Below are positions 4,439-58,457 of a DNA stretch of 64,000 nucleotides, piece by piece. The position numbers and the translations under genes are program-made. The notes under the pieces are model-generated. The model did no database searches and was not told the DNA's origin. It saw only the letters and a program-made list of their open reading frames with translations. The stretch is from a virus. Within the stretch, counting starts at the first letter, position 1. The number at the start of each line of letters is the position of its first letter. The stretch is taken from IMG/VR virus record IMGVR_UViG_3300019471_000109, positions 1 to 64,000 of that record; one strand, 5' to 3'.

Positions 4439-4517
4439 AAAATCCTCTTTATACAAAATTGTTCTTAAATAATATAAAATAATTTGCAAATTATTACTAA
4501 AACAAAGGTTAACTTTA

Positions 4518-5375
4518 ATGAAATTTCAGAATAAGAAAAGATTAATTGACGTCGGAGAAATTGGTAACGCTTAGACCGGCGATATCATTTTTAATGGTGG
4601 CGTAAAAATTAATGAAGTTTTCTAGGATTTGTATAATGTATTTGGTGATAGACGATTACTAAAAGGTAACGATGGTCAAAATTTAATGATCCTTCATGGT
4701 ACTGGATATTATCAAAAACTTCCCAGATCAGAATATACAGCAGAAATAGAAATCGGTTAGATGCATGATATCAGCACATCTGATGGTCCATTAACAATCA
4801 GACTACCGACTAATTGTAAAGCAGGTGAACGAGTAAGAATTTAGAATTTTGATGGTTCATGGAAAAACTTTACTTTATAGGTTGATGCAAATTCTGGCGG
4901 TAATATTGATGGTAAGCAAGTACAAAAATATAATCAAGATTTTTGTGAAATTCAATTTGTGTGTACAGATGATTCACAATTAAACGTTCGTGGATGGAAA
5001 GCTTTAGTTACTCCGTTATATGGGAATCATTATGTTCCTGTAGATGATATTATTGATCTATAGAGACAACAAATTCTACAAAAAGAAATCTTTAAAACAA
5101 AAGACTATACTGCATTAAAATTATTAATTTCTGGCGAAGAGATTATTAATACATCAGAACAGACATATAAACAACTTATGGAAGTTCTTGTTTTAACTGA
5201 TAAAGATCAAGTATTAAGTACTGAATACGGTGTTTTATATACTTCTCCAGAAAAATTATTTACTGTTGAGTTTGTTTTATCCCAAGATAAATCTACAGTG
5301 TATGCAAAAATCTAGTAGAGTTCTACAAAACAACTTAGAATTCAAATTAAATCTATAGAGCAAATCAAAATTTAA
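4518..5375 (+). CDS. Hypothetical protein (285 aa) with 8 in-frame TAG, including a tandem TAG-TAG
   Basis: Continuous frame from ATG 4518 to TAA 5373-5375. It is on the opposite strand between the two polymerase segments. Confidence 0.5.
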
Positions 5376-6855: not shown

Positions 6856-8136
6856 TTAATTACTTTTTAATTTAATACCAACAAACATCTATAACTTCTA
6901 TTTGCCGATTAAGTTATTCCAATCATCACCACGATTAATCTTTTCATTCTAATCAATAAAAGGATTAACTGATAATGCATATCTTGTCATTAATAAGACG
7001 TTATTATGGAAACTCATAGGATCTCTTGAAATATAAATCTATGAGCCATCTTCTTCTTGGTAAGGGCAATAATATAAAGAACCGATAATATCATCTGGAA
7101 TATATTCTTCATCTTCAGGCTCTTCATCTTTTGATACAGCTTCAGCAATATCAATATTATGTTTACATCCAACTACAAAATAGTCAAATTTGCTATAAGT
7201 GTCAATGTAAATTTTGAGACCTGATTTTAAATACCCATGAGATCTTGTCATTTCTGATTCTTGGTTGAAAACAACTAAACCAGCACCACATAATAAACCA
7301 TACACATCAGGAGATACAATTACATAAGTAGCTGAATATGTTGTGTTCTATAACATTTTCGCTGCTGCAGCACCGATCATAGAATTGATATCTCTACCAA
7401 TTTGCCATAAAGGGTCAGTTCTTGTTGATAAATCAATAAAACCATTAGTAATACCCAATGCTTTATCATCAAAACGTTTACTTACAGTGATTAATTTACT
7501 AATAATATCTTTATTAACTTCATTAACCAAAGCTGTTGCTAATGTATCCTCAACAATTGCGACAGAATCCATTCCATTTGCCTCAAGATCTTGAATTAAT
7601 TCTTGTGTTAATTTGATCTAAATTTTTCTAGTTCTACATGGAACAACCCATTTACCAATTTCAAATTTAGCTTCAATAGGTGCTTCACCTTCAGTATATG
7701 AAACTTCAGCGGCGTCTGAATATAATCTTAATGTTCCATCGATAACAGCTTTTAGCACAACAACTGATAAATCTGCATCAGCACTTAATGTTCCAGCTTT
7801 AACTGCGATATAAATTGCATCATTATCAGGCGTTCTATATACTTTATCTTTAGTTACAGATAAACCACTTGATAAAACCGGTAAATCTTTAACTTTATTT
7901 TTACTATTTGTGCCAGTAACAGTTAAATTATTATCATGTAATGTTTGACCATCTTCAGTCAAATATTTTAACCCAAAAATTTGTGCTTCTGGGTTATTTG
8001 TTTGTTGAATAGCTACCATATCACGGAAAACTCTTGAGGCAACTGTTTTCTATAATGATACTAAGTACGGGCGAGTTCCCTAAATTGCGTTGGTTTTTGT
8101 CTATTCTTGTAGTAATTCTTCTAAAATTCTAGCCAT
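6856..8136 (-). CDS. 24: gp23/gp24-family capsid protein (closest to the T4 vertex protein gp24), 426 aa, 9 in-frame TAG
   Basis: The N-terminus MARILEELLQE-TAG-TKTNAI matches T4 gp24 MAKINELLRESTTTNSNSIG. QDLEANGMD, KIYIDTYSKFDYFVVG and LMTRYALSVNPF are also conserved. The track ORFs 7039..7305, 7348..7572 and 7618..8019 are pieces of this one frame. Confidence 0.75.
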
Positions 8137-8148
8137 TATATGCCCTTA

Positions 8149-11268: not shown

Positions 11269-11348
11269 TTAAAGTCCTTGTAGTTAAGTTAAATATCTAT
11301 ATAACTTTTATATAATAAATTAAAAATAAATTAATTAAACTTATAATT

Positions 11349-12857
11349 ATGATTAGATTCTAGAAAATTAATGAAACATACGGTAAAATCTAGACTCTTG
11401 ACAACGATGCCTTATGGGAAATTAAAGATTATTGTTAGTTTCAACCAGAAGGCTATAGATTTAACAAAAAATATAAATATGGTGCTTGGTCCGGAAAGAT
11501 TTAGCTCGTTGGATAGAATGGAGAATTTCCATTAGGTTTACTAAAAATCATTGTTAAATTTTGCGTAGAGTCTAAATATAAAATCGAAATCTCTGATACA
11601 TTAAAAACTCATAAAGCATTTGAATCAAAAGAAGAATTTGATAAATGGATCGATTCAAAAGAAATTTGGGCTAAAGGTGTTAGAATTGATCCATATTGGT
11701 ATCAAAGAGAATCTGTTTTTCAAGCATTACAAAAAACCCGTGGAATTATTAATGCGCCTACTTCAGCTGGTAAATCTTTAATGATTGCATTACTTGCAAA
11801 ATGGTTTTCGGAAAATTTTGATCAAAAGGTATTGGTGATTGTTCCAACTACATCTTTAACTGTGCAAATGAAAAATGATTTAGTTGACTATAGATTATTC
11901 AAAGAATCTGATATCGCTGAAATTAGATCCGGAACTTCTCATTTTGTTTATGATAAAACAGTTGTAGTTTAGACCTGGCAATCCGCTCATAAAAAAGACC
12001 CTGAATGGTTTGAACAATTTGGAATGCTTATTGTTGATGAAACACATTTAGCTACAGGTGCTAGCATATAGCAAATGGTTAAACTAATGACTAATTGTGT
12101 TTATAAGATAGGTTTATCCGGTTAGTTAAAAGATGGTAAAGCAAACATTTTAAATTATATCGGTTTATTTGGCGATATTATTAAACTTGTTTAGACTAAT
12201 CAGTTAATGGAAGAAGGACAAGTTGCTAAATTAAAAATCAAAGCACTAAAAATTGATTATCCGGAATCAGACAAAAAAGAGCATAAAAAAGATACTTACG
12301 ACGAAGAAATAAAATTCATTACAAAAAATGAAAAACGTAGTAAATTGCTAGCAAAACTTGCTATTGGGTGTTCTTCAAAAAATAATGATGAAAATACTTT
12401 GTTAATGTTTAGATATTAGGAACATGGTAAAATGATGTACGAAGAAATTTGTAAATCATATCCAAAAGAAAAAGTATTTTTTATTAATGGTGAAATTAAA
12501 ACTAAAGATCGCGTAAAAATTCAAGAATTAGCAGATAAAGTTTCTGGTATTATTATTGTGGCATAGTACGCAACAACAGGTACTGGTATCAGTATTAAAA
12601 ATCTTTAGAATGTTATTTTTGGATAGCCGATTAAATCTAAAGTAACAGTGTTACAAACAATCGGAAGATCTTTAAGATTACATAAAGATAAAGAATTTGC
12701 TACAGTTTATGATATTATTGATGATTTAAGTATCAGATCTGCAAAAACTGGAAAAATTACCCATTAGAATTATGCACTAAAACATGGATTAGATCGTATT
12801 AAACGATATAATGAAGAGAAATTTGAATACTAGATTAATTCTTATTAGTTAAAATAA
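11349..12857 (+). CDS. uvsW: UvsW helicase (SF2 DNA/RNA helicase), 502 aa with 16 in-frame TAG
   Basis: Aligns along its whole length with T4 UvsW (NAPTSAGKSLM, VIVPTTSLT, VVV-TAG-TWQ, DETHLATG, LSG-TAG-LKDGKAN, IVA-TAG-YA, VLQTIGRSLR). The track ORFs 11781.. and 12207.. are in-frame pieces. Confidence 0.8.
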
Positions 12858-17278: not shown

Positions 17279-17585
17279 AAAACTGAATAATTATACGGTA
17301 GTTTAATAAAATCAAATAGATACACTATCAAAAATTCTATCATAAAACTTTATTCCTTTCTAAATCAATAGGTTATGCATTAGAAGTTAAAAAGTGCATT
17401 TTGACTAGTATAATAAGAATTAAGTTCTGCCGGTTGGGTTAGATATATAGAAAAGAGACTGGAATTAAAATCTTGATATACAAATAATAGAAATAAATAA
17501 AATATCAGATTGGAGCTTGCTCCGTTGACTGGAAACCAGTCAACTAATTCTAGTTTTATAGAAAGGTAAAAAGGTATTTGCTTTA

Positions 17586-18113
17586 ATGAATATATTTCCT
17601 AATAAATAGATAGCTCATAATATAAGAGTAGAATTTCCTTAGTTAAGAGATCAGACTGTTGCTAGTTCATGGGCAGCTCAGATGACTCAGTTACCTTAGT
17701 TTACATTAAATGCTTCTCAGATTGCAAATGGTCCTTGGATGATGTCTAGTATTCCAGCAGCATCAGTACAGTTTGAACCTATCACAATTTAGTTTTTACT
17801 TGATGAGAAATGGCAAGTATACGAAGAAATGTATAAATGGGCTCTAGGTGAAGGTGATTATATCAAAGGTCATTAGAATGAAATAACTACAACTCCTAGA
17901 GATATGCTTATTCATGTGTTAGATAATAAAAATGAAAAGATTGTAATGACATTCAGATTTTCTAAAGCATTTCCTAGTATGTTTGGTGGCGTTGATTTCG
18001 ATTACACAGATGAGCAATCTACATATAATAAACTTCAAATAACCTTCCAGTATGCATGGTTTACTATTGAGAGAAATGGCGAAACATTATATAAAGCTAA
18101 ATTCAAGAAATAA
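17586..18113 (+). CDS. 19: Tail tube protein (T4 gp19-like), 175 aa, 5 in-frame TAG
   Basis: Similarity to T4 gp19 (N-terminal NIRVEF versus NLFQVEI; the C-terminal half). The track ORF 17904..18113 is its C-terminus. Confidence 0.65.
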
Positions 18114-18842: not shown

Positions 18843-19109
18843 ATGGACCAAACTCAATTATTATAGCAATTACAACAACAAAATGCTGCGTTAAAAATTC
18901 GTGTATTTGATGCGGAAGAAGAATTAAACCATATCAAAACAAATATACAATCGTTTTTGAATGGTGTTGCTGATTTACTTCAACAAGATCAAATTACTCT
19001 TCAGACTGTTTATGATTATATTAAAGAGATTCATCCTGAATCTCAAAAAGAAGCAACTGATACTAATAATGATAACGGTGAAACATTATTGTTAGAGGGT
19101 AAAGAATGA
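18843..19109 (+). CDS. Small coiled-coil protein (88 aa, 1 TAG)
   Basis: Continuous frame; its stop TGA overlaps the next ATG. Confidence 0.45.
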
Positions 19110-19552
19110 GTAAAGTAAATTATGTTGGATGTAATCTTGGTAAAGTTGCTCAACAGATGATTTCTGACCTTTATAAAGAATATAAAATTCCAGAAGAAAA
19201 TCAAGTTAACTTAGACGATTTACATATTACTATTTTCAAGTCAGCTGAATTATTTGATTTTGATGACGATGAAAAAAATCTTTTAGAAGCTTTAGATTTT
19301 AATGAAGTAGAAATTGATTATTGGACACCAACTGGCAATCAAATGATTCTAAAAGTTAAATCTCAATTTTGTAATGATATATTTGAATCGTTACAAAAAA
19401 TTGCGAAACCGATTTATGATGATTATATTCCTCATATCACAATCGCAAGAGATTTACCGGTTGAAGTATTAAATACTTTACCAGAAAGATTAACTAAAGT
19501 AAAATTGAAATATTATCCAATTATTACAGAAGTTTATTCTAAAGTTCTTTAA
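19106..19552 (+). CDS. 2H phosphoesterase (LigT-like) paralogue
   Basis: HITIF and HITIA motifs (two H-x-T-x). Confidence 0.7.
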   Translation: MSKVNYVGCNLGKVAQQMISDLYKEYKIPEENQVNLDDLHITIFKSAELFDFDDDEKNLLEALDFNEVEIDYWTPTGNQMILKVKSQFCNDIFESLQKIAKPIYDDYIPHITIARDLPVEVLNTLPERLTKVKLKYYPIITEVYSKVL

Positions 19553-19594
19553 CAATTTAAATAATTTAAAGTTATATTAAACAATAATATGGTA

Positions 19595-19720
19595 TTATAG
19601 ATCTGTAAACAACAATACGGATCTATAATTTAAACAATATAATAGATTACATGCAGCAACAAAATAGTACTGTTGATTATTAGGTATATAAAAAGAGTGT
19701 AATCTGTTATATTGTTTCAT
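19595..19720 (-). CDS. Small hydrophobic peptide (41 aa) with a strong AGGAGG RBS
   Basis: Minus-strand ORF preceded by AGGAGG at an 8-nt spacing. Confidence 0.3.
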   Translation of the reverse strand: MKQYNRLHSFYIPNNQQYYFVAACNLLYCLNYRSVLLFTDL

Positions 19721-19886
19721 AAGTCCTCCTTGTTGTTTAAGTTGAAACGATTTAGCTTGCAGTAGTATAAAATACAGCAGATCTTATATTAAAATAAGAA
19801 ATTTTCATTTTGGTTGAAAAAAGTTCGAGTAACAGGTCTTGAATTAAAATAATAAAATCTGGAACTATGCAAGCTGTTTTTAATTT

Positions 19887-19963
19887 GGTCCTATGGTATA
19901 GATTGGTTAACATACTGCGCTGTCACCGCGGAGTCACGGGTTCGAGCCCCGTTAGGACCGCCA
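19887..19963 (+). tRNA. tRNA-Asp (GTC)
   Basis: Cloverleaf folded by hand: acceptor GGTCCTA/TAGGACC, anticodon loop CTGTCAC, GGTTCGAGCC T-arm, CCA encoded. Confidence 0.85.
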
Positions 19964-20060
19964 ATTTCAAAAACAACTATAAAAATTTAGTGTTTTAGCG
20001 CTGATGTTCAAGGTTATAATAAATTAACTACAAGGCCTAGTTGTTCACTATTTATTAAAT

Positions 20061-20137
20061 GCCCCGTTAATTCAATTGGATAGAATATTCGCCTTCTAAG
20101 CGAACTGTTGCAGATTCGAATTCTGCACGGGGTGCCA
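20061..20137 (+). tRNA. tRNA-Arg (TCT)
   Basis: Acceptor GCCCCGT/ACGGGGT, anticodon loop CTTCTAA, TTCGAAT T-loop, CCA encoded. Confidence 0.85.
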
Positions 20138-20234
20138 AATATTTTAAATCAGAATACTAACAGCAATAATTATTTTTATATTTTTCATGGTTAGATAGAA
20201 CGATAAAACAGTATTCTGTTTTAAAATATTTCAT

Positions 20235-20308
20235 GCGTCTATGGTATAATGGTATTATTCTTGGCTTCCAACCAAGTGATGAGAGTTCGATTCTCTCTAG
20301 CCGCACCA
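20235..20308 (+). tRNA. tRNA-Gly (TCC)
   Basis: D-arm GTATAATGGTAT as in T4 tRNA-Gly, anticodon loop CTTCCAA, TTCGATT T-loop. One T-C mismatch at acceptor position 4:69. Confidence 0.75.
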
Positions 20309-20531
20309 AATTATAAAATAAAAGTTTATACATAATTTTGTATGATATAATAAAACAGAATTACGTAATCGTGAGTGAACCACGTTAATAGTTCGGTAAG
20401 AGAGGCAAAGTACTCCTTATGGCTAAAACAGAGGTGTAGTTAGTAAAGACAATGTCTAAAGTCGAATTACTAAGTTTAATTTTATATTAAATGGTTTATA
20501 GATACCCAAACGAAATCTAAGAAGACACGTA

Positions 20532-21299
20532 TTATGTATTCTTTTTGCAGTATTTACTACAAAATTTTACTTTAGATTTTCTTTTATTATTAGTAGAAAA
20601 TTCTTTGTTACATCTATCACAAATGTATGTATATTTTGGTTTGTAATTTTGATACATTTCTTGTAATTTTTTATTAGGAAAATTAACTTTAAACCAATTG
20701 AACATAAAATCTAAATCTTTCTTATATAATATTTGTATATTATATCCTTGTGATTTTGCAGCATTTAATTTTAAATCTACTAATGGGGTATGAAATCCTT
20801 TTATTTCTATGATTGTATTATCTCCTAGAATAAAATCTGGATAATATTTTTTATTATTATCATATAAAATATAGAAATCACATCTTTTGAATTTTATATT
20901 ATGATGTAAATTATAGATTACCCATAGTAATTCATATGTTGACCCGCAAAATATATTGTTATAATAACCCTGGATAGATCGACCACTATTTTCTCTATAT
21001 CCTCCGGTGTTACCTTTATTAACATTAGAAATATGTTTCGCAGCACATTCTAGGGAACAACATTTTTTATTCTCTTGACATGGATTGACATACATAATTT
21101 TATTACAAATAATACAATTTTTAATAATTTTAGGCTTCTTTAATTTTTCGGAAGCTTCTTTAAATTTAATCTAATTTTTGATAGATTTCTATAATTTTTC
21201 TTTATGTTCTTTAGACCATGATCTGCTATTAGCACATTTTCTAGAACAGAAAGCGCCGGATTTATTATGTAGTGTTTTACATTTAGGACATTCTTTCAT
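20532..21299 (-). CDS. Free-standing nuclease, probably a homing endonuclease: three CxxC...CxxxC zinc-ribbon repeats plus a PD-(D/E)xK-like core (YYPDF...IIEIKG); 2 in-frame TAG
   Basis: Track ORF 20532..21095 extended upstream through two TAGs to ATG (complement 21297-21299). It lies between tRNA genes, as segB does in T4. Confidence 0.55.
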
Positions 21300-21360
21300 A
21301 ATATTATTTTAAATAAAAAGTTATATATATTGATTATTTAAATAAAATCAATTTAAAAAT

Positions 21361-21388
21361 AAGGGTTCGATTCCCTTACGGAATACCA
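21361..21388 (+). pseudogene. Isolated tRNA 3' fragment (T-arm AAGGG TTCGATT CCCTT + ACGGAAT + A + CCA)
   Basis: T-arm and 3' acceptor strand with CCA, but no upstream D-arm or anticodon arm. Confidence 0.4.
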
Positions 21389-21508
21389 AATAAAAGTTTA
21401 CATACATAAATTTTTATGTATTATTAAAAAGAATTTTGGATTAACTACAGCAACTTAATTAGACTTGACTTTTAATCAATAATCTAGAAAGAATAATCCG
21501 TTTTATTT

Positions 21509-21584
21509 GGCTCAGTAGCACAATGGTTAGTGCGTTCGGCTGTTAACCGAGAGGTTATAGGTTCAAGTCCTATCTGGGCCGCCA
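21509..21584 (+). tRNA. tRNA-Asn (GTT)
   Basis: Acceptor GGCTCAG/CTGGGCC, anticodon loop CTGTTAA, CCA encoded. Confidence 0.85.
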
Positions 21585-21606
21585 AAATTTATTCTATTGA
21601 GTCTAT

Positions 21607-21695
21607 GGAAGACTGGCAGAGCGGTCTAATGCAGCGGATTCTAAATCCGACAACCGGACGTATCCGGTTCCCGAGTTCGAATCTCGGGTCTTCCG
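21607..21695 (+). tRNA. Amber-suppressor tRNA with tRNA-Ser identity and a CUA anticodon (tRNA-Ser(CTA)); the anticodon is at 21641-21643
   Basis: Type-II tRNA with acceptor GGAAGAC/GTCTTCC and G73 discriminator. D-arm GCAGAGCGGTCTAATGC with a 3-bp stem as in E. coli tRNA-Ser. Anticodon loop TTCTAAA has U33, CUA and A37. The long variable arm AACCGGA-cgta-TCCGGTT and T-arm CCGAG TTCGAAT CTCGG follow. CCA is not encoded. Confidence 0.8.
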
Positions 21696-21781
21696 AGAAA
21701 ATTTTAATTTTAGAGTTTTCCCGGAAGATTAAAAATGATTGAGGTTAGACTATTTTGGAATAGTAGTAGAAATATTTCTAT

Positions 21782-22429
21782 TTGTATAAAATTACAAATT
21801 TAGTTAATAATAAAATTTATATCGGTGCTCATTCAACAACAAATTTAAATGATAATTATATGGGCTCTGGTAAGCTAATAAAATTAGCAATTAACAAATA
21901 CGGTATTAATAATTTTAAAAAAGAAATTTTAGAATTTTTTAATTCAGTTGAAGAGTTATATAGCAGAGAAAAAGAAGTTGTTAATCTGGATTTTGTGAAA
22001 AGATCTGACACATATAATTTAATTGTAGGCGGAACTGGTTAGTGGTTTTACGTTAATAAATTTGTTAATTCAAATGAGTTTATGACTAAAATCGGAAAAC
22101 TTGGCAACGAGGCATTTTCCGCTAAACTGAATAATGATTCAAATTTTAAAAATTCTTGGAAAATAAAAATATCTAAAGCTAAAAAGAATTTTTATAAAAA
22201 TAATCCGGAAGCAAGGTTTAAAAATAGATATAAACATGATGGTTTTAAACATTCCGAAGAAACTAAATTAAAAATGAGAGAAATAAAAAAGAAAAATCCT
22301 CCGGTAGGAGATAAAAACTCTCAATATGGCACGATGTGGATTTGTAATTTAGATTTACAACTAAATAAAAAGATTTCAAAATATGAACAAATTCCGGATG
22401 GTTGGATTAAAGGCCGGAAGGTAAAATAA
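21782..22429 (+). CDS. GIY-YIG homing endonuclease (SegB-like) with a NUMOD-like DNA-binding motif; 1 in-frame TAG
   Basis: GIY-YIG N-terminus ([17 protein letters not shown]...R...E). Track ORFs 21782..22042 and 22082..22429 are in the same frame, joined by a TAG. The C-terminal [15 protein letters not shown] is a NUMOD3-like motif. It sits inside the tRNA cluster as segB does in T4. Confidence 0.75.
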
Positions 22430-22473
22430 ATAAGTGTAAAAAAATACTAACAGCAATTATTTGTCGCTGAATG

Positions 22474-22545
22474 TCGGCGGGTAGCTTAATTGGAAAAGCA
22501 GCAGACTGAGAATCTGTATATCTTGGTTCGAATCCAAGCCTTGTA
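22474..22545 (+). ncRNA. tRNA-like element with an unpaired acceptor: good D-arm (GCTT/AAGC), anticodon arm (loop CTGAGAA) and T-arm (CTTGG TTCGAAT CCAAG), but 5' CGGCGGG and 3' CCTTGTA cannot pair
   Basis: Hand-folded. It is either a degenerate tRNA or a tRNA-like structure. Confidence 0.35.
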
Positions 22546-22615
22546 AATAGTATTTTGTTTTTAATTAAAATGAGTTTTATTAAACCAGAATTCGAACAGC
22601 AATTATTTTCTTAAA

Positions 22616-22686
22616 TTTTCCTGGTACGAAAAGGGTGTAGGTTCGAGTCCTACTGCGGAATTTCCGTATGGTGTAATGGGAGCATG
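22616..22686 (+). ncRNA. Permuted or fragmented tRNA-like element: anticodon arm (TTTTC CTGGTAC GAAAA, anticodon GGT/Thr), T-arm (GTAGG TTCGAGT CCTAC) and 3' acceptor TGCGGAA-T, followed directly by a matching 5' acceptor TTCCGTA plus a D-arm (GTGT AATGGGA GCAT)
   Basis: The two halves make a complete cloverleaf only if joined in permuted order. All 7 acceptor positions pair (6 Watson-Crick plus 1 G-U). Confidence 0.35.
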
Positions 22687-22722
22687 TAAAAGAAAGAATC
22701 CTGATTTAATATAATTTGTTAT

Positions 22723-22800
22723 TGCGATGAATTAGAGCTGGTGCACTAACTGGTCTCATAAGCCATGATTAGGTGGGTTCGATTCTCACCATCGCAACCA
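22723..22800 (+). tRNA. tRNA-Met or tRNA-Ile2 (CAT)
   Basis: Acceptor TGCGATG/CATCGCA, anticodon loop CTCATAA, T-loop TTCGATT, CCA encoded. The D-loop is slightly long. Confidence 0.7.
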
Positions 22801-22802
22801 AT

Positions 22803-22878
22803 AGGCCGTTAGCTCAGTCGGTAGAGCAGTTGACTTTTAATCAACTGGTCACAAGTTCAAATCTTGTACGGCCTACCA
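22803..22878 (+). tRNA. tRNA-Lys (TTT)
   Basis: Acceptor AGGCCGT/ACGGCCT, D-arm GCTCAGTCGGTAGAGC, anticodon loop CTTTTAA, CCA encoded. Confidence 0.85.
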
Positions 22879-22891
22879 AATTTATTATTTT

Positions 22892-22968
22892 CTCGGATTA
22901 GCTCAGCTTGGTAGAGCAAAGTCTTGATAAGGCTTGGGTCACTAGTTCGAATCTAGTAACGAGAACCA
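22892..22968 (+). tRNA. tRNA-Ile (GAT)
   Basis: D-arm GCTCAGCTTGGTAGAGC, anticodon loop TTGATAA, T-arm ACTAG TTCGAAT CTAGT, CCA encoded. Two mismatches at the base of the acceptor stem. Confidence 0.7.
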
Positions 22969-22974
22969 ATTTAT

Positions 22975-23050
22975 GTGGCGGTATCATAAATGGTAATGAT
23001 CTGGATTGTGATTTCAGAATATGTTGGTTCGAAGCCAACTCGTCACCCCA
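22975..23050 (+). tRNA. tRNA-His (GTG)
   Basis: Acceptor GTGGCGG/TCGTCAC with two G-U pairs, anticodon loop TTGTGAT, C73 discriminator, CCA encoded. No encoded G-1 is evident. Confidence 0.65.
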
Positions 23051-23099
23051 AATAACTATAATAATATTTGTACCTTAAAATTTTATGGAGTAGCTAATT

Positions 23100-23339
23100 T
23101 TGGTTACTCCTTTTTATTATAAGCGGAGCACAGAATATAATATGAAATATGTGTTTAAATTATTAAATCAGCCTAATACAGATTTAAATTTGAATTTAGA
23201 TGATTTGTATATCGGTGAGTATCAAAAGAGCATTACAGGTGATCTAGTCATCAAAATTACATCAAATATTCAAGAAACTAAATCGTATGATTTTTTAATT
23301 CCAACTGATAAAGCAGAAAAACTTTATACTTGGCAATAA
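23100..23339 (+). CDS. Hypothetical protein (79 aa)
   Basis: ORF track. Confidence 0.5.
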   Translation: MVTPFYYKRSTEYNMKYVFKLLNQPNTDLNLNLDDLYIGEYQKSITGDLVIKITSNIQETKSYDFLIPTDKAEKLYTWQ

Positions 23340-23406
23340 AACTATTTACATTTGTTAAAATTTTTGGTATTATATATTTCTATTAAACAACAAAGAGGAA
23401 TATAAA

Positions 23407-23667
23407 ATGGCTTGGAATGATGGATATGATAGTTGGAGAACTGCAGAACCAGAACCAACAAAAGCTGAAATGTTTTCAGAAAAATATGTTGAAGAAAAAT
23501 CTGAAGAAATTGTAAAATTTTTACAAGGATATGATGAGTTAGATTTATGTGAATTTGTTGATTGGGATAAGTTATCAGAAGTGTTATCGGAAAAATCTGA
23601 AGAAGCACGACAAGATGCTAAAGACCAAGCAAAAATTGATGCATATGAATCTAGATTCGATTACTAA
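23407..23667 (+). CDS. Small acidic protein (86 aa)
   Basis: ORF track. Confidence 0.55.
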   Translation: MAWNDGYDSWRTAEPEPTKAEMFSEKYVEEKSEEIVKFLQGYDELDLCEFVDWDKLSEVLSEKSEEARQDAKDQAKIDAYESRFDY

Positions 23668-23669
23668 AG

Positions 23670-23693
23670 AAGGTGGCGAATGCCACCTTTATT
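23670..23693. terminator. Bidirectional terminator (AAGGTGGC gaat GCCACCTT + T-run)
   Basis: Hairpin between convergent genes. Confidence 0.6.
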
Positions 23694-23694
23694 T

Positions 23695-24327
23695 TTATGC
23701 TAATAGTTCTTTATATTCTCTAGTTCTATCTTCTAATCCAATTGTGCCGCCATTAACTCTTTTTGTTAATAACACAAAATCAGAGATTCCCTAAAGTTTA
23801 TTTACATCCCAAAAGAAAACACCAGTCAAGACAATCAATTTAGCTGAACTTAAAATTTTATCGGGATTTGATAAAATTTCTGGGTCACCTAACCATTTCT
23901 AAAATCTTGTGTAATTATCTTTTCCTGTTAATTGAACTACACCACGACCACGATATTTCCAACCGTCGCCCGTAGATGCAGGGCCATTTCCCATTCTGTT
24001 TGCATACACAATATTTGCGATTCCAGCTTGGTCGGCTTTTTGAACAATTACGCCTGCTTTGTTTTTAATGTAACCATATTTCTATGATGTTATTCCTGGA
24101 AAATATTTTGGAAATGTTTTTCTTAAACCATCAGAAGAGTAATTTAAATTTTCCTAAAATTTCTAAAAACCAGCTGATTCATGGGCACATTGAGCAATAA
24201 ACATGGCTAACTGATTATCGGTCTAAATACCAGCTTTTTGTACATTCTAAATGATCTCCTGATAAATTCCGGGTAATGCTTTTGGGTATAATTTGTTGAA
24301 CTTTTGTTCTGTTAATTTAAAAGCCAT
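23695..24327 (-). CDS. Endolysin, glycoside hydrolase family 19 (chitinase-like lysozyme), 210 aa, 7 in-frame TAG
   Basis: GH19 signatures [31 protein letters not shown] and INGG..G, in a single continuous minus frame. Confidence 0.75.
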
Positions 24328-24346
24328 AATCACCTCATAAAATTAA

Positions 24347-25597: not shown

Positions 25598-25696
25598 ATG
25601 AATTACTTAGCAATGATATTAGGCGCCGTGATTATGTATGGCATTATGGAATTTTTCAAAAAACACAAAATCGTTAAAAAGGATGACAATGAATGA
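25598..25696 (+). CDS. Small membrane peptide (32 aa, MNYLAMILGAVIMYGIMEFF...)
   Basis: Short ORF whose TGA overlaps the downstream ATG. Confidence 0.3.
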   Translation: MNYLAMILGAVIMYGIMEFFKKHKIVKKDDNE

Positions 25697-26628
25697 ACAA
25701 ATTAAACGTATCAATTATTTCTTTTGTGCTACTGGCTATTGTCGCTATTTTTGCAATCGGTTCATCGATTTATTCTGTAGATGCTGGCGAGACAGCTATC
25801 GTTACCAAATACGGTGAAATCGTTGACCAAAAAACATCTGGATTAAATTTTAAATCACCAGTTGAAAATGTTACATTTTTCAGTACACGCGAAGCTAAAG
25901 TAGATTTTGGCGATTTTGATAAAACTAGCGGCGATGTTATTTCTGGGTTGTCTGCTTATACTGCAGACCAACAAACCGCAACCGTTGCTTTAACTGTTAC
26001 TTACCAGATTCACGATCCAGAACAAGTTTATACACGATACAAAACAACAGAAAACATGATTAACACTTTGTTGTCACCTAAAGTTCGTCAACAACTTGAA
26101 ATCGTATTTTCTAAATATACCGCTCAAACAGCAATTCAAAATCGTGGTGAATTTGGTGCAGCATTAAGATCTGGTATTCAAGATGCGTTTAAAGGTTATC
26201 CATTAATTATTACTGATGTTCAATCTGTTATTAATTTCTCAAAAGAATATGAAGCACGTATTGAAGCTTCTGTTAATAAAGATGTTGAAATCAGAAATAA
26301 AGAGCGTGAAACTAGAATTGCAATGGAAGAAGCGCGTGCTCAAAAAGCAAGAGCTGAAGGTGAAGCCGCTGCAAGATTAGCATTAGCCGAAGGTGAAGCA
26401 AAACAAAAAGTTGTTCAAGCGGATGCTGATGCTCATGCAATTAAAGTTAAAGGGGAAGCTGAAGCTGCAAATGTAAAAGCAATGGCGGATGCTTTAGCGA
26501 AAAATCAAGAACTTGTTGCTTTGGAAACTGCTAAACGTTGGGATGGTAAATTACCAACATATTTACCTCAAGGTACTATGATGCCATTTATTAATTTACC
26601 AAATATGCCTCAAGCAGTTCAAAAATAA
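25693..26628 (+). CDS. SPFH/band-7 (prohibitin or HflK/C-like) membrane protein with an Ala/Glu-rich coiled-coil C-terminus
   Basis: N-terminal transmembrane segment, then SPFH motifs (ETAIVTKYGEI, GLNFK.P) and a coiled coil. Confidence 0.75.
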   Translation: MNKLNVSIISFVLLAIVAIFAIGSSIYSVDAGETAIVTKYGEIVDQKTSGLNFKSPVENVTFFSTREAKVDFGDFDKTSGDVISGLSAYTADQQTATVALTVTYQIHDPEQVYTRYKTTENMINTLLSPKVRQQLEIVFSKYTAQTAIQNRGEFGAALRSGIQDAFKGYPLIITDVQSVINFSKEYEARIEASVNKDVEIRNKERETRIAMEEARAQKARAEGEAAARLALAEGEAKQKVVQADADAHAIKVKGEAEAANVKAMADALAKNQELVALETAKRWDGKLPTYLPQGTMMPFINLPNMPQAVQK

Positions 26629-27993: not shown

Positions 27994-29457
27994 ATGTCAG
28001 CATTATTTCAAGCATTAACTGCAACCCCAACAGTATATACTGAAAATGGTATGCCAACCCTAGCCACATCTGGTAATGAATTACTTGATTTATTTGGTAT
28101 TATTGGTAATCGTAATTTCAATTTTGAATATAACAATCATAAAATTGAAGTTGCAAAAACAACAGATCCTGTATTAACCGGCCGTTTATTTTTATGGGCA
28201 CGTGATTGCCGTGGTGGTGCAGGTCATCGCGATCCTATCCGTAAATTAATTTTAAAATATGCAGGAAGCGATTTAAAATTTGCATTAGCATTAGCTGCTA
28301 AATTGCCAGAAGTTGGTTATTATAAAGATTTAATTTATCTTTATGAAAACACCTTCTCAAAAGATGAATTTGTTGCATTTAAAACTGGTATTGTTGATTT
28401 AATCATCATTGAGTTAACTAATGCATTAAAAGAAAAACGTTTTTCATTATTAGCAAAATATATGCCTCGAAAAGGTCAAACTGCTGTAATGCTACGTAAT
28501 GAATTGAAATTATCGCCTAAACAATATCGCAAACTCGTAGTTCAATTATCAAAAACAGTTGAACAACAAATGTGTATGAAAGAATGGGATAAAATTAAAT
28601 TTGAAAATGTTCCATCTGTTGCAATGATGCGTTACCGCCGTGCTTTTGAACGTCATACTTCTAATTATGAAGAATTCCAAAATAAAGTAGCAAAAGGCGA
28701 AACTAAACTTAACGCAGCACAATTAACACCGGGCGAAATTGTATACCAAGTTGAGCGAACTTCTCGTTCTGAGAGCACTCAATTAACATATTTGCAAAAT
28801 GCGTGGAATTCATTACCGGATTATCTTGATAATTCAACTGAACGTTGGTTACCTGTAATTGATGTATCTGGCTCAATGACAACTCAAGCGGGAAATACAA
28901 ATATGACTTGTATGCAAATTGCAATGGGTTTAGGTGTATATTTGTCAGAACGTAATAAAGGAATCTTCCAAGAACAATTTATTACATTCTCAAGTAATCC
29001 AGCTTTCGTTGATATGAAAGGTAAAAAATTCCAAGATATCAAAAATAAATTTGATTGGATTGCTCGTCAAAACTGGGATATGTCAACAAATTTAGAACGA
29101 GTATTTGATTTAGTATTAAATGCAGCTGTTGAAAATTCTATTAAAGAATCTGAAATGCCAACAAAAATTGTTATTTTCTCTGATATGGAATTTAACTCTG
29201 CAACACGCAATTCAAATGATCGTGCGTTAACAATGATTAAACGTCGTTATGTAGAAGCTGGTTATTCAATGCCTCAATTAGTTTTTTGGAATTTAGCTGG
29301 TCGTGGTAATAACATGACAGTTAATATTAACGATAAAGGTACTTGTCAAGTTTCTGGTTATAGCCCAGCGGTGTTGAAAAACTTAACTAATTTGGAAGCA
29401 TTTACTCCAATGTCTGTGATGCTGCAAACATTAGGTTCAGATCGTTATTCATTTTAA
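27994..29457 (+). CDS. vWA-domain protein (MIDAS DVSGSM) with an N-terminal region carrying a GxGHRD-x-IR motif reminiscent of Ro60/TROVE proteins
   Basis: The vWA MIDAS motif is clear. The TROVE-like resemblance (WARDCRGGAGHRDPIRKLI versus Ro60 GWSHKDLLRL) is tentative. Confidence 0.6.
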   Translation: MSALFQALTATPTVYTENGMPTLATSGNELLDLFGIIGNRNFNFEYNNHKIEVAKTTDPVLTGRLFLWARDCRGGAGHRDPIRKLILKYAGSDLKFALALAAKLPEVGYYKDLIYLYENTFSKDEFVAFKTGIVDLIIIELTNALKEKRFSLLAKYMPRKGQTAVMLRNELKLSPKQYRKLVVQLSKTVEQQMCMKEWDKIKFENVPSVAMMRYRRAFERHTSNYEEFQNKVAKGETKLNAAQLTPGEIVYQVERTSRSESTQLTYLQNAWNSLPDYLDNSTERWLPVIDVSGSMTTQAGNTNMTCMQIAMGLGVYLSERNKGIFQEQFITFSSNPAFVDMKGKKFQDIKNKFDWIARQNWDMSTNLERVFDLVLNAAVENSIKESEMPTKIVIFSDMEFNSATRNSNDRALTMIKRRYVEAGYSMPQLVFWNLAGRGNNMTVNINDKGTCQVSGYSPAVLKNLTNLEAFTPMSVMLQTLGSDRYSF

Positions 29458-42448: not shown

Positions 42449-42857
42449 TTTAAAGCAATTAAAACAAATAGGGTTTTAGTTTTTAACCGATGTTTAGTTA
42501 GATCAAAATGGTTTATTACAAATAAACAAAAATGATGTAAAAAATTAGGTTTATGCTATTTACATCAATGATACATTAGTTTATATTGGTAAAACAAAAC
42601 GATGGAGAAAACGCTGGGATACTTATAGAAATGCGGTTAATTGGGTATCTGGTAATTCATCAAATGTTAAAAAGACATCTTTATTAACAGAAGCTATAAA
42701 GCAAGGAAATGTTATAAAGGTTTATTATAAACAAGCAATTTTTTAGTATTCTTTTAAAGATTTTGATAATAATGATCTTATTGTTTAGTCATTATTAGAA
42801 GAAGAAAAAAGAATGATTAAAAAATTCAAACCAAAGTGGAATATTCAACATGCCTAA
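42438..42857 (+). CDS. Small GIY-YIG endonuclease (139 aa) with 6 in-frame TAG, including codon 2
   Basis: VYAIYINDTLVYIGKTKR...R is a GIY-YIG core. The frame is continuous from ATG 42438 to TAA 42855-57. Confidence 0.55.
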
Positions 42858-44010
42858 TTATACAGCTAAAGAAAAGGTAAAAATGTTATCCTTGTTTGAT
42901 AACCTAATGGAACTATGTTCTGATGAAAGCAATACATTTTTCTTTGTAGATACTACAAGTTCAATGCAATCTAAATTCCGAATTTTTTCATATTATATTG
43001 CAAGTTATTCTGAGTGGTTAAAACCAGGTGCCTTAGAATGCCGCGGTATTATGTTTGAACTTGATGACAACAATAATCCTATTCGTATTGCAGTAAGACC
43101 GCCTAAAAAATTCTTTAATCTTTTTGAAAATCCATTTACGGAAGATATTAAAGATGATCAAGTCGGTTTAGCTTTTAAAAAAGAAGATGGCTCATTAATT
43201 AGTTCATTTATTGATAAAGGCGAATTGTTTTTAAAATCTAAAGGTTCTTTATTTTCTCAACAAGTTTTAGATTCTCAAAAATGGTTATATGATGAACGCC
43301 GTAAACCTTTACTTGAATGTTTAAAATGGTATGCAGAAAATGATATTACTATTAATATGGAATGGGTATCGCCAGATAACCGAGTCGTTTTAACATATGA
43401 TGAACCTAGACTTATTATTTTAAATGCAAGAAATAATATCACTGGTGAATATATTGATCTTGAAGATTTAGTTAAAGACCAAACAGTTAACCAATATATG
43501 GTAGATAACCATCCATTTGAAACGATTAACGAATTAATTAAAGAAGTTCAAGAATTAAAGGACCAAGAAGGTTATGTTGTGTATGATTCAAAAGGAGCAG
43601 AACCTGTATTTAAAATTAAATGCCCATGGTATGTTCATTTGCATTCTGTAAAATCTTCTGTTAGTTCTGATAAAAATTTATGGGAAGCTGTTGCTGAAGG
43701 TGTTTCTGATGATATTAAAGCACTATTTGAAACAGATAAAGCATCGTTAGATAGAATTGCTAAATTCGAATCTATTTACAAAAAACAATTTTCTTTTGTT
43801 TATAAAACTACAACAGAAATTTATAATAAATTGCGTGGAAGCAGCCGTAAAGATTACGCAATTGAATCTCAATCAATTTTAAATGAAATGGGTTGCCCAC
43901 AGATGTTTAATATTGTAATGCGTTTGTACTTAAATGGCCCAGATGAATCAATCGTTGATTTGATTAAGGATCATTTAGTTAAATTTATTGATGTGTATTT
44001 GGAGTTATAA
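42850..44010 (+). CDS. rnlA: RNA ligase 1 (T4 Rnl1 / gp63-like)
   Basis: LFDNLMELC, RIFSYY.ASYSEWL.PGALECRGIMFE, KEDGSLIS and FKIK.PWYV.LHS.KSS match T4 Rnl1. Confidence 0.85.
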   Translation: MPNYTAKEKVKMLSLFDNLMELCSDESNTFFFVDTTSSMQSKFRIFSYYIASYSEWLKPGALECRGIMFELDDNNNPIRIAVRPPKKFFNLFENPFTEDIKDDQVGLAFKKEDGSLISSFIDKGELFLKSKGSLFSQQVLDSQKWLYDERRKPLLECLKWYAENDITINMEWVSPDNRVVLTYDEPRLIILNARNNITGEYIDLEDLVKDQTVNQYMVDNHPFETINELIKEVQELKDQEGYVVYDSKGAEPVFKIKCPWYVHLHSVKSSVSSDKNLWEAVAEGVSDDIKALFETDKASLDRIAKFESIYKKQFSFVYKTTTEIYNKLRGSSRKDYAIESQSILNEMGCPQMFNIVMRLYLNGPDESIVDLIKDHLVKFIDVYLEL

Positions 44011-57560: not shown

Positions 57561-57743
57561 ATGAAACAGATCAAAATCACAAAACAAGAATACCTTGGCA
57601 TCTTAAATGATAACTCTAAAAAATTAGTTGTTAAAAAAGTTAAGCAAGGTCTTAAATTTAAAGAAGTTATTTTTTCTGGTGTTGATGTAGTTGCTGAACG
57701 TGTAGTAACTGCTGATGGTGTTGAGTACTTTAAATATGCGTAA
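57561..57743 (+). CDS. Small protein (60 aa)
   Basis: ORF track. Confidence 0.5.
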   Translation: MKQIKITKQEYLGILNDNSKKLVVKKVKQGLKFKEVIFSGVDVVAERVVTADGVEYFKYA

Positions 57744-58362
57744 ATTTTTATAGATTATTTTATTAGGATTAACATTTGCAAGCCCATCAATCGCTAAAGC
57801 AGTTGAGTGTCCTGATATTGAAACTTAGTTAAAAGTTGAAGTACAGTCTGATGATATTGTAAAAATTTGCAATGATCAGTATATTTAGTACTTTAGTAAA
57901 GAATGGAAAATTCCAGTTGCTGTTGTTGAAAAATTAGAAGAATCTGATTTTAAACAAAATAAAGCTCATAGAACAAATGATTTTAGATTTGATTCTAGAC
58001 TTAGCTATAAAGATCAATTAAATCCTAAGCAATATGCTAAAAGTGGTTATGATAAAGGTCATCTAGCAGCATAGTCAGATACATCTGATTATGATACTGT
58101 AAGTCAATAGTACTTAATGACAAATATTGTTCCACAAGATCCTGTTTTAAACAGAACTACATGGAAAAATATGGAAACATTTGCAAAGGATTTAAGAAAG
58201 TCTAATTATCATGCTAAGTATGTGATTTCTGGTATTGTATTTGATAATTGTGAAATTCATAAAACAAAAAACGGAATGAATATTCCTGATAAAATGTTTA
58301 AAATCATTGCGCATGATAGAATTTCTACTGTATTCTTTATTGACAATATAAAACCAGAATAG
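57736..58362 (+). CDS. Secreted non-specific DNA/RNA endonuclease (EndA/NucA family, DRGH-like GYDKGHLAA), 208 aa, 5 in-frame TAG
   Basis: Signal peptide MRKFL-TAG-IILLGLTFASPSIAKA and the catalytic KGH motif. The track ORF 58117..58362 is its C-terminus. Confidence 0.55.
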
Positions 58363-58457
58363 AATAAAATTTTTAATTATGAATCTAATTTAGGTGTTGT
58401 AAATTCATAGTTATGCAAGGTAAAAATTAAGTTTAATCCAGAATAAAGGTAATTATA

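Follow-up and report, generated by a model that had tools for sequence, protein, structure and literature searches.

Probable Y-RNA-like tRNA mimics and a truncated tRNA-Glu gene in the tRNA cluster of a T4-like phage

Stem-closed modules among the tRNA genes

We analysed the tRNA gene cluster of an AT-rich, T4-like phage (GC content ~29%) represented by positions 1–64,000 of the IMG/VR record IMGVR_UViG_3300019471_000109; this 64,000-nucleotide (nt) stretch is called the window, and all coordinates are window positions. An initial annotation had pointed to three anomalies among the tRNA genes, and we found each of them in the sequence as described: an element at 22616–22686 whose 3′ half lies before its 5′ half, the two together making a full cloverleaf; a tRNA-like cloverleaf with an acceptor stem that cannot pair; and an isolated T-arm with 3′ acceptor strand and CCA at 21361–21388. 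ARAGORN calls none of the three, and a BLAST comparison of the anomalous stretches with GenBank phages returned generic tRNA similarity only. No close relative was found among GenBank phages, and comparisons were based on four IMG/VR contigs and three metagenome contigs that are 90–98% identical to the window over the tRNA cluster.

The first and second anomalies are parts of larger units, modules M3 and M2, which belong to a set of five stem-closed modules in the window, all on the + strand:

19632–19717, + strand: M0; closing stem of 21 base pairs (bp; 19632–19652 / 19697–19717), box GCAGCAA at 19653–19659, short cargo
20150–20218, + strand: M1; closing stem CAGAATACT / AGTATTCTG, box ACAGCAA at 20160–20166
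21438–21499, + strand: M4; closing stem GGATTA / TAATCC, box ACAGCAA at 21447–21453, hairpin cargo
22441–22556, + strand: M2 (second anomaly); closing stem AAAATACTA / TAGTATTTT (22441–22449 / 22548–22556), box ACAGCAA at 22450–22456
22466–22480, within M2: hairpin CGCTG-AATGT-CGGCG in the acceptor-stem position
22484–22500, 22502–22518 and 22523–22539, within M2: D-arm, anticodon arm (loop CTGAGAA) and T-arm
22572–22717, + strand: M3 (first anomaly); closing stem 22572–22593 / 22696–22717, box ACAGCAA at 22596–22602
22616–22632 and 22637–22653, within M3: anticodon-like hairpin (loop CTGGTAC) and T-arm
22654–22668, 22671–22685 and 22687–22695, within M3: closed acceptor hairpin, D-arm and A-rich TAAAAGAAA

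Each module starts with the 5′ strand of its closing stem, directly followed by a box of the form (A/G)CAGCAA, a cargo, an A-rich tract and the 3′ strand of the closing stem. The closing stem, which corresponds to the basal helix of YrlA and other Y RNAs, is present in five of five modules, and the A-rich tract precedes the 3′ strand in every one. This layout accounts for a recurrent motif that had been noticed in front of several elements: AACAGCAATWATT has three + strand copies (20159, 22449 and 22595) against 0.01 expected, and it is the conserved box of the modules. The motif is therefore real, although the coordinates first given for it were 1–4 nt off and two copies of its core (ACAGCAA at 21447 and GCAGCAA at 19653) had been overlooked.

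The three short modules differ in cargo. M0 folds at −24.6 kcal/mol (z = −4.6) and has an equivalent with the box ACAGCAA in the related contig L160. The cargo of M1 comprises 43 nt and is poorly structured, with the A-rich tract at its end; the stem is preserved in L003 and L160 and the cargo is variable. In M4, the tip of the cargo (TTGA-CTTTTAA-TCAA, 21465–21479) reproduces, letter for letter, the anticodon arm of the tRNA-Lys(UUU) that the phage itself encodes; the TAATCC strand of the closing stem is preserved in all relatives, and an alternative 3′ strand, TAATCTA, is disrupted in both L159 and L160. Short modules were assessed with a scripted scan for stem plus box; a general covariance model was dropped, the closing stems being out of register in the MAFFT alignment.

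Module M2 carries a near-complete tRNA core. Rfam matches it to the tRNA family at 22480–22540 with 52 bits, covering model positions 6–65 only, and the presumed acceptor strands TCGGCGG and CCTTGTA form at most four of seven pairs, in agreement with the initial annotation. A covariance model built from another locus only (R2, from L094) recovered 22441–22556 at full length as the top match of its search (63.4 bits, approximate E = 1.7e-12), and its alignment places the 'unpairable' 5′ acceptor strand within the local hairpin at 22466–22480. The cargo of M2 is a tRNA fold in normal order in which the acceptor stem is replaced by a local hairpin.

Module M3 carries the permuted element. This element consists, in order, of the hairpin TTTTC-CTGGTAC-GAAAA with a GGT 'anticodon', GGGT, the T-arm GTAGG-TTCGAGT-CCTAC, TGCGGAA-T-TTCCGTA, TG and the D-arm GTGT-AATGGGA-GCAT. 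The two acceptor strands pair at seven of seven positions with one G-U (chance ~1e-3), and RNAfold predicts a 6-bp hairpin with a 3-nt loop when they are folded as continuous RNA. Model R1, built from the L060 module only, has its best match in the window at 22586–22703 (43.1 bits, approximate E = 2.1e-8, full length), and this alignment spans the closing stem, box, hairpin, T-arm, acceptor hairpin, D-arm and A-rich tract. The order of T-arm, closed acceptor-like hairpin and D-arm with tRNA-like conserved nucleotides (22637–22685) is that of YrlA, and the cargo of M3 is a complete tRNA fold in permuted order with YrlA Y-RNA topology.

A tRNA-Glu gene interrupted by a homing endonuclease

The third anomaly lies next to one of two homing endonuclease genes, which the initial annotation had placed in the cluster; both are real, one of HNH type and one of GIY-YIG/NUMOD3 type, and both open reading frames (ORFs) contain in-frame TAG codons:

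20532–21299, minus strand: HNH homing endonuclease ORF with two in-frame TAG codons (phrog_1271)
21356–21388, + strand: 3′ remnant of tRNA-Glu(UUC) (variable region, T-arm, 3′ acceptor strand, A73 and CCA)
21782–22429: GIY-YIG/NUMOD3 SegB-like endonuclease gene

The fragment reads AAGGG-TTCGATT-CCCTT-ACGGAAT-A-CCA at 21361–21388 with no 5′ tRNA part upstream, as had been described. At the same position, the relatives L159 (QWCO01000022.1) and L160 (QWCF01016041.1) have no HNH gene and an intact tRNA-Glu(UUC), with the 5′ half GTTCCGT-GC-GTCT-AACGGTTA-GGAC-A-TCTGA-CTTTCTA-TCAGA and the 3′ half AAAT-AAGGG-TTCGATT-CCCTT-ACGGAAT-A-CCA; the L160 sequence at this place is GTTCCGTGCGTCTAACGGTTAGGACATCTGACTTTCTATCAGAAAATAAGGGTTCGATTCCCTTACGGAATACCA. 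The window aligns with both relatives through 20537 and resumes at 21356 (boundaries 20537/20538 and 21355/21356). Nucleotides 1–2 of tRNA-Glu are retained at 20536–20537, and an 818-nt HNH cassette (20538–21355) stands in place of nucleotides 3–43. Because the endonuclease-free L159 and L160 keep an intact tRNA-Glu here, we read the fragment as a remnant: the comparison marks it as the defunct 3′ end of a gene for tRNA-Glu(UUC) that was destroyed by an HNH homing-endonuclease cassette. The suggestion that the anomalies might be endonuclease scars is borne out for this element, and a deletion remnant revealed by relatives is the very outcome that had been named beforehand as refuting.

Three other ideas about these elements were rejected or dropped. 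A group I intron with the HNH gene inside the tRNA is contradicted by the lack of an intron match in Rfam and by the uninterrupted tRNA-Glu of the relatives. The T-stem of the fragment has GGG/CCC in the window versus GAG/CTC in L003, a compensatory pair that is uninformative about function because both alleles occur in intact tRNA-Glu genes, those of L160 and L159. Lastly, a search by eye for 5′ acceptor strands acting in trans for M2 and the fragment (ATTCCGT, TACAAGG) gave chance-level matches only.

The arrangement resembles Seg/HNH insertions in T4-type tRNA clusters (SegB), in which, as here, a free-standing endonuclease gene overwrote part of a tRNA; it differs from SegB-type insertions in that tRNA-Glu was destroyed, and it is a clean case of a homing endonuclease costing a phage a tRNA gene. 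In T-even relatives, SegB-like genes occupy the corresponding site of the tRNA cluster. The GIY-YIG SegB-like gene itself occurs only in the window and is absent from L003, L159, L160 and L161, which carry a different suppressor-tRNA allele adjoining its insertion point (window region 21600–22441). This allele difference beside the insertion looks like co-conversion by homing.

Could M2 and M3 likewise be functionless pseudo-tRNAs or scars of endonuclease-driven rearrangement? In favour of this are the two homing endonucleases in the cluster, the tRNA-Glu remnant, a window tRNA-Ile that is a Pro/Ile chimera made by deletion and the degraded closing helix of M3. The two modules, however, show little or no difference between five related genomes, where all substitutions in M2 and M3 fall in loops or linkers and the intervening spacer has indels and many changes. 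L159 and L160 carry both with at most two substitutions each, again all in loops or linkers, and because both modules are essentially unchanged in these endonuclease-free genomes, they are not homing-endonuclease remnants. Models from foreign phages recover both at full length including flanking stems and box, unrelated phages have modules built in the same way and the helices covary across the family (below). Scars therefore seem a highly improbable explanation for M2 and M3.

A Ro60-like protein and the module family in other phages

Downstream of the tRNA cluster, on the same strand as the modules, lies a gene for a Ro60-like protein:

27994–29457, + strand: Ro60-like protein gene; TROVE-like HEAT-repeat ring plus vWA domain (Pfam DUF2828 and DUF7788; phrog_850, 'RNA-binding protein')

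Besides DUF2828 and DUF7788, Pfam reports a weak VWA_2 match, and its TROVE family does not catch the DUF2828 branch. An AlphaFold2 model of the protein (predicted local distance difference test, pLDDT, 88.9) was compared with known structures using Foldseek. The best matches in the PDB are full-length Ro60 structures (2i91, 1yvp and 9nep; template modelling (TM) score ~0.6, E ~1e-9), and the crystal structure of the TROVE protein of phage phiLo (9kop) is also matched, with E-values of the top matches ranging from 1e-9 to 2e-7. The predicted fold, a HEAT-repeat ring followed by a vWA domain, is the one that characterizes Ro60/TROVE proteins. A PDB sequence search with the protein gave no match, the likeness to Ro60 being seen by fold comparison only. 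Homologues were found by tblastn in 710 GenBank phage records, including Felix O1 relatives and Listeria phage P100, and those of mycobacteriophages, including Jubie, are annotated in GenBank as 'Ro-like RNA binding protein'. We propose that this product is the protein partner of the modules.

We surveyed 29 loci around viral homologues of the protein at 32–39% identity, which usually hold tRNA clusters on the strand of the Ro60-like gene. Modules with a closing stem and NCAGCAA were found 144 times on the gene's strand compared to 18 times on the opposite strand and ~11 times in shuffled sequence. Many of them abut the gene (for example, in L134, L135, L139 and L142), and in many loci they lie within ~200 nt upstream and 100–800 nt downstream of it. 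As a control set, we used 117 tRNA-cluster loci retrieved from viral contigs by the pattern GGTTCGAGTCC-N-GGTGTAATGG (mostly tRNA dimers); these were chosen by a tRNA-like pattern, and modules were scanned for with a simple script that has a measurable background. Of the control loci, all five that include a Ro-like gene had four or more modules on its strand, versus 10 of the other 112 (Fisher p = 1.8e-5).

The modules recur beside homologues of the Ro60-like gene in distant phages, namely Felixounavirus, the KVP40-sized contig L130 and a mycobacteriophage, with different sequences and the same pairings. They form arrays of 3–8 with varied cargo inside tRNA gene clusters, and most family members have no complete tRNA fold. 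Eight further distinct modules have a cargo of T-arm, closed 7-bp hairpin and D-arm, with a closing stem and acceptor hairpin that differ in each, and L094 and L135 hold modules with cargo of the M2 type. In Felixounavirus BPS17W1, four modules lie among tRNAs directly after an 'RNA-binding protein' gene, one of them with permuted cargo of the M3 type. Among the 22 matches of model R1, 95.6% of cells pair, compared to 57.6% in shuffled sequence and 40–46% when partners are slid, and changes on both sides are seen in eight of eight closing-stem pairs and seven of seven acceptor-hairpin pairs. Acceptor loops in the family mostly have 2–8 nt without CCA, some being tetraloops (for example, GCAA and TTTT), and the anticodon-like loops differ freely (GGT, TAT, GTA, GCT and CAT). 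Mycobacteriophage Jubie has three CAGCAA modules after its Ro-like gene; the permuted-cargo module among them matches Rfam YrlA (RF02553) with 39.3 bits and E = 4e-6, which falls short of the gathering score (69), and also matches R1 with E = 1e-6.

An alternative is that the modules act without Ro60, as elements that serve the processing, stability or punctuation of tRNA operons (sites of nuclease entry, transcript stabilizers or attenuators), co-occurring with the protein gene through shared residence in tRNA clusters. Modules are indeed interspersed among tRNA genes in the window, L130 and Felixounavirus, M0 and M3 have closing helices of sufficient length for RNase III, and ten control loci have modules with no Ro-like gene in the fetched stretch. 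On the other hand, in many loci the modules directly flank the Ro-like gene and not tRNAs, and the 6.4-kb Jubie stretch has one annotated tRNA yet three modules. The tRNA cluster of T4-like RB51 has no modules, and the stretch fetched for it has no annotated Ro-like gene. Nor would a plain processing signal need tRNA-shaped cargo. We consider this alternative unlikely.

The literature on DUF2828, Ro-like proteins and YrlA gave no account of such modules in T4-like or Felix O1-like phages, where an earlier description is possible, and no such RNA is marked in the four annotated GenBank stretches that we inspected.

Comparison with Y RNAs and permuted tRNA genes

YrlA RNAs (Rfam RF02553) have paired ends, a 5′ box and an optional hairpin, followed by T, acceptor-like and D stem-loops; they occur in bacteria and 22 phages, where their genes neighbour that of Ro60 on the same strand, nearly all no more than 4 kb away (Chen et al. 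2014, PMC4201824; structure preprint 10.1101/312249). Further traits of the family are binding by Ro60/Rsr and use as substrates by tRNA enzymes (TruB, DusA and RNase P). M3 shares this plan: its ends pair, a short box stands behind the 5′ strand and the optional hairpin, T-arm, closed acceptor-like hairpin and D-arm follow. It also keeps tRNA tertiary nucleotides (U8, A14, G18-G19, the T-loop TTCGA and an A15:U48 option) and is encoded on the strand of a Ro60-family gene, and the mycobacteriophage family member scores on RF02553. The differences concern the box, which is (A/G)CAGCAA in this family and GNCGAAN0-1G or 'CGAA' in YrlA; the anticodon-like arm, which is complete with a 7-nt loop in M3, so that the break lies at tRNA position 26/27, whereas the break of YrlA lies in the anticodon stem; the proposed partner, which belongs to the DUF2828 branch of Ro60-like proteins; and the organization in arrays of 3–8 in tRNA clusters with varied cargo, the window modules being 5–8 kb from the protein gene.

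Several observations count against an assignment to Y RNAs. The YrlA box GNCGAAN0-1G is absent, with AACAGCAAT at that position and CAGCAA conserved across the phage family, and Rfam YrlA gave no match at E ≤ 10 on 22430–22725 (296 nt) and none on 19000–24000. The Ro60-like gene, although on the same strand, is 5.3–8.4 kb from the modules with other genes between, a greater distance than the 4 kb reported for YrlA, and because of the ten control loci with modules and no Ro-like gene in the fetched stretch, the link to the protein is statistical, not absolute. In four relatives, the closing helix of M3 comprises 22 bp, of which one is G-U; the window copy has three mismatches in the 5′ strand that these relatives do not share, so it may be weakened. 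Lastly, the covariation alignment was fitted to the model's own structure, and E-values from the custom models R1 and R2 are rough. Since Rfam YrlA misses M3 and the box is CAGCAA, we file M2 and M3 outside RF02553, as a divergent Y-RNA/tRNA-mimic variant.

M2 resembles Yrn1 of Deinococcus radiodurans, a Y RNA with D-like, anticodon-like and T elements in normal order between paired ends (PMC4201824). In both, tRNA-like elements in normal order lie between paired ends, although Yrn1 has partial D-loop features and a 6-nt 'anticodon' loop, and M2 has a near-perfect tRNA core (52 bits with Rfam tRNA), together with the CAGCAA box and an additional hairpin where the acceptor would be. Thermus phage phiLo likewise has a phage Ro60 homologue with Y-like RNAs, Yrl1 and Yrl2, adjoining its gene; those RNAs were chosen by a CGAA motif and a stem-bulge-stem shape, and tRNA-like cargo is not reported in the part of that account covered here (PMC12135203).

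The initial annotation had compared M3 with the permuted tRNA genes of a red alga and some archaea. As in Cyanidioschyzon merolae and the archaea, the 3′ half of M3 lies upstream of the 5′ half and the flanks pair. In these organisms, permuted tRNAs pass through a splicing endonuclease and a circular intermediate to become ordinary CCA-ended tRNAs; no bacterial or phage enzyme is known for this processing route, and no splicing-endonuclease-type motif or enzyme was evident for M3. Further points speak against the comparison: M3 encodes no CCA, which most tRNAs of the cluster do, its acceptor is capped and most members of its family carry no complete tRNA fold.

A related possibility is that M3 is a true permuted or split tRNA-Thr(GGU), cut by RNase P 5′ of TTCCGTA, trimmed at the 3′ end and given a CCA; the acceptor and closing helices would keep its two pieces together, and the product would be aminoacylated and used in translation. 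The 7-bp acceptor pairing, the full set of arms and the 7-nt anticodon loop would suit this reading, as would the fact that the window has no other tRNA-Thr, its relatives having tRNA-Thr(TGT), and that another module of the family (L091, 4098–4218) encodes A-CCA in its acceptor loop. In addition, YrlA of Mycobacterium smegmatis, which has a 7-bp acceptor stem, is cleaved by RNase P and acquires CCA (PMC4201824). M3, however, has a single nucleotide between its acceptor strands and no encoded CCA, and the acceptor loops of other members, 2–8 nt without CCA, include tetraloops. Threonyl-tRNA synthetase uses G1-C72/C2-G71, and M3 ends in U1-A72/U2-A71. Anticodons vary freely in the family, and the module sits with same-box modules whose cargo is not tRNA. 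The missing CCA, the capped loops and the freely varying anticodons together make a translating tRNA-Thr improbable.

Additional features of the window and related loci

The L091 module is of interest in its own right. It has permuted cargo, and its acceptor hairpin loop reads A-CCA-AATTATAC; because discriminator and CCA are encoded inside the loop, cleavage by RNase P could, as judged from sequence, turn it into a tRNA-like RNA of two pieces with a CCA end. In L142, two Rfam tRNA matches of 112–120 nt (11541–11660 and 11835–11946; full model, 1–71) contain large insertions, and both sit between modules downstream of the Ro-like gene. A Band-7/SPFH gene (25693–26628) lies shortly upstream of the Ro60-like gene in the window and also in Jubie (L163 genes 48 and 54), and the two genes may form a conserved pair.

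The tRNA cluster of the window directly adjoins genes for deoxynucleoside monophosphate (dNMP) kinase and Acb1 upstream, the same layout as in T-even phages, and beyond the cluster are genes for UvsX, a Dda-like helicase, Rnl1 and topoisomerase. The 2H phosphoesterase at 19106–19552 was considered as a tRNA-splicing enzyme and ruled out, as it is Acb1 (anti-CBASS). A strong terminator-like hairpin is found at 23087–23110, past the end of the cluster. The 228-nt spacer between tRNA-Gly and the former tRNA-Glu (20310–20537) is 99.6–100% identical among relatives that differ by 2–8% elsewhere and is also conserved in the endonuclease-free L159; it begins with a promoter-like TTTATA-N-TGATATAAT, and it has no Rfam match, no ORF and no significant fold (z = −0.45).

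Directly 3′ of M3, at 22723–22797, is a tRNA(CAT) with an unusual D-arm (31.5 bits with Rfam, missed by ARAGORN). The 'tRNA-Ile(GAT)' at 22891–22968 is chimeric, its 5′ part corresponding to the tRNA-Pro of relatives, which results in acceptor-stem mismatches. Between tRNA-Lys and tRNA-His, the relatives L001–L004 have tRNAs for Gln, Pro, Thr(TGT), Trp and Ile, and ~600 nt with four tRNAs were apparently lost from the window through recombination between similar D-arm regions.

Readthrough of TAG is common among the genes of the window. Gaps in the standard-code ORF map are filled by long frames free of TAA and TGA with 3–16 in-frame TAGs (for example, 11319–12857(+), 6856–8145(−), 957–1946(−), 4473–5375(+), 17529–18113(+), 23695–24342(−) and 57709–58446(+)). 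The frame at 11319–12857 encodes the UvsW helicase (E = 2e-143 versus T4 UvsW), and of its 12 aligned TAG positions, four are opposite S and two opposite V, with one each opposite T, G, R, Y, H and L. A suppressor tRNA(CTA) at 21606–21696 combines a long variable arm with G73 and the acceptor GGAAGAC, and since this tRNA is of the tRNA-Ser type, TAG is probably read as serine, not as glutamine (code 15).

Interpretation

The comparisons establish a conserved, covarying structure, tRNA-like cargo and a statistical same-strand linkage with a gene for a Ro60-fold protein. M2 and M3 are probably Y-RNA-like tRNA-mimic modules with a divergent box, and the third element is a tRNA-Glu remnant. Of the earlier interpretation, the endonuclease scar stands for the remnant, while M2 and M3 are read neither as scars nor as permuted tRNA genes of the red-algal or archaeal kind.

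By analogy with what is known or proposed for the bacterial Y RNAs YrlA and Yrn1, we suggest the following scheme. The tRNA cluster and its modules would be transcribed as a long + strand precursor, consistent with the terminator-like hairpin that follows the cluster. Modules would then be cut out at or near their closing helices, those of M0 and M3 (20–22 bp) having the length of RNase III-like substrates. The Ro60-like ring protein of the phage would bind the closing helix and the CAGCAA box, leaving the tRNA-shaped domain to engage factors that recognize tRNA, for example, modification enzymes, RNase P, exonucleases or nucleases of the host that target tRNA. Candidate roles for such a particle include control of RNA quality together with a host exonuclease, repair of tRNAs with Rnl1 and a decoy for anticodon nucleases.

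The last of these roles could also be imagined with the Ro60-like protein as a mere chaperone or irrelevant, the cargoes serving as decoys or sponges for host tRNA-targeting nucleases or tRNA-modifying enzymes. The identity of the M4 cargo tip with the tRNA-Lys(UUU) anticodon arm, the CTTTTAA and CTTTTAC loops that are also found in L135 modules and a T4 Rnl1-type tRNA-repair ligase encoded at 42850–44010 are in keeping with this. The idea is nevertheless pure inference, and other cargoes, including those of M0, M1 and many 50-nt modules, have no anticodon-like loop; we regard it as improbable.

For annotation, both M2 and M3 may be mistaken for pseudogenes or exotic permuted tRNAs, since ARAGORN skips them and Rfam calls M2 a partial tRNA. 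A closing stem plus CAGCAA box provides a simple signature for Y-RNA-like modules, and the 710 GenBank phage records with homologues of the protein include genetically tractable phages. Speculatively, tRNA-rich phages (T4-like, Felixounavirus, KVP40-like and others) may encode a dedicated ribonucleoprotein system composed of a divergent Ro60-like ring and an array of CAGCAA-box Y RNAs, whose interchangeable cargoes copy single arms, such as the anticodon arm of tRNA-Lys(UUU) in M4, or whole or permuted tRNAs. While the phage infects, the system might guard, monitor or mend the tRNA pool, either as a decoy for anticodon nucleases of the host or through a link that brings the ring and a host exonuclease or Rnl1 to damaged tRNAs. 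Arrays of tRNA-shaped Y RNAs within tRNA clusters would point to a role in tRNA surveillance or anti-defence that is testable in model phages.

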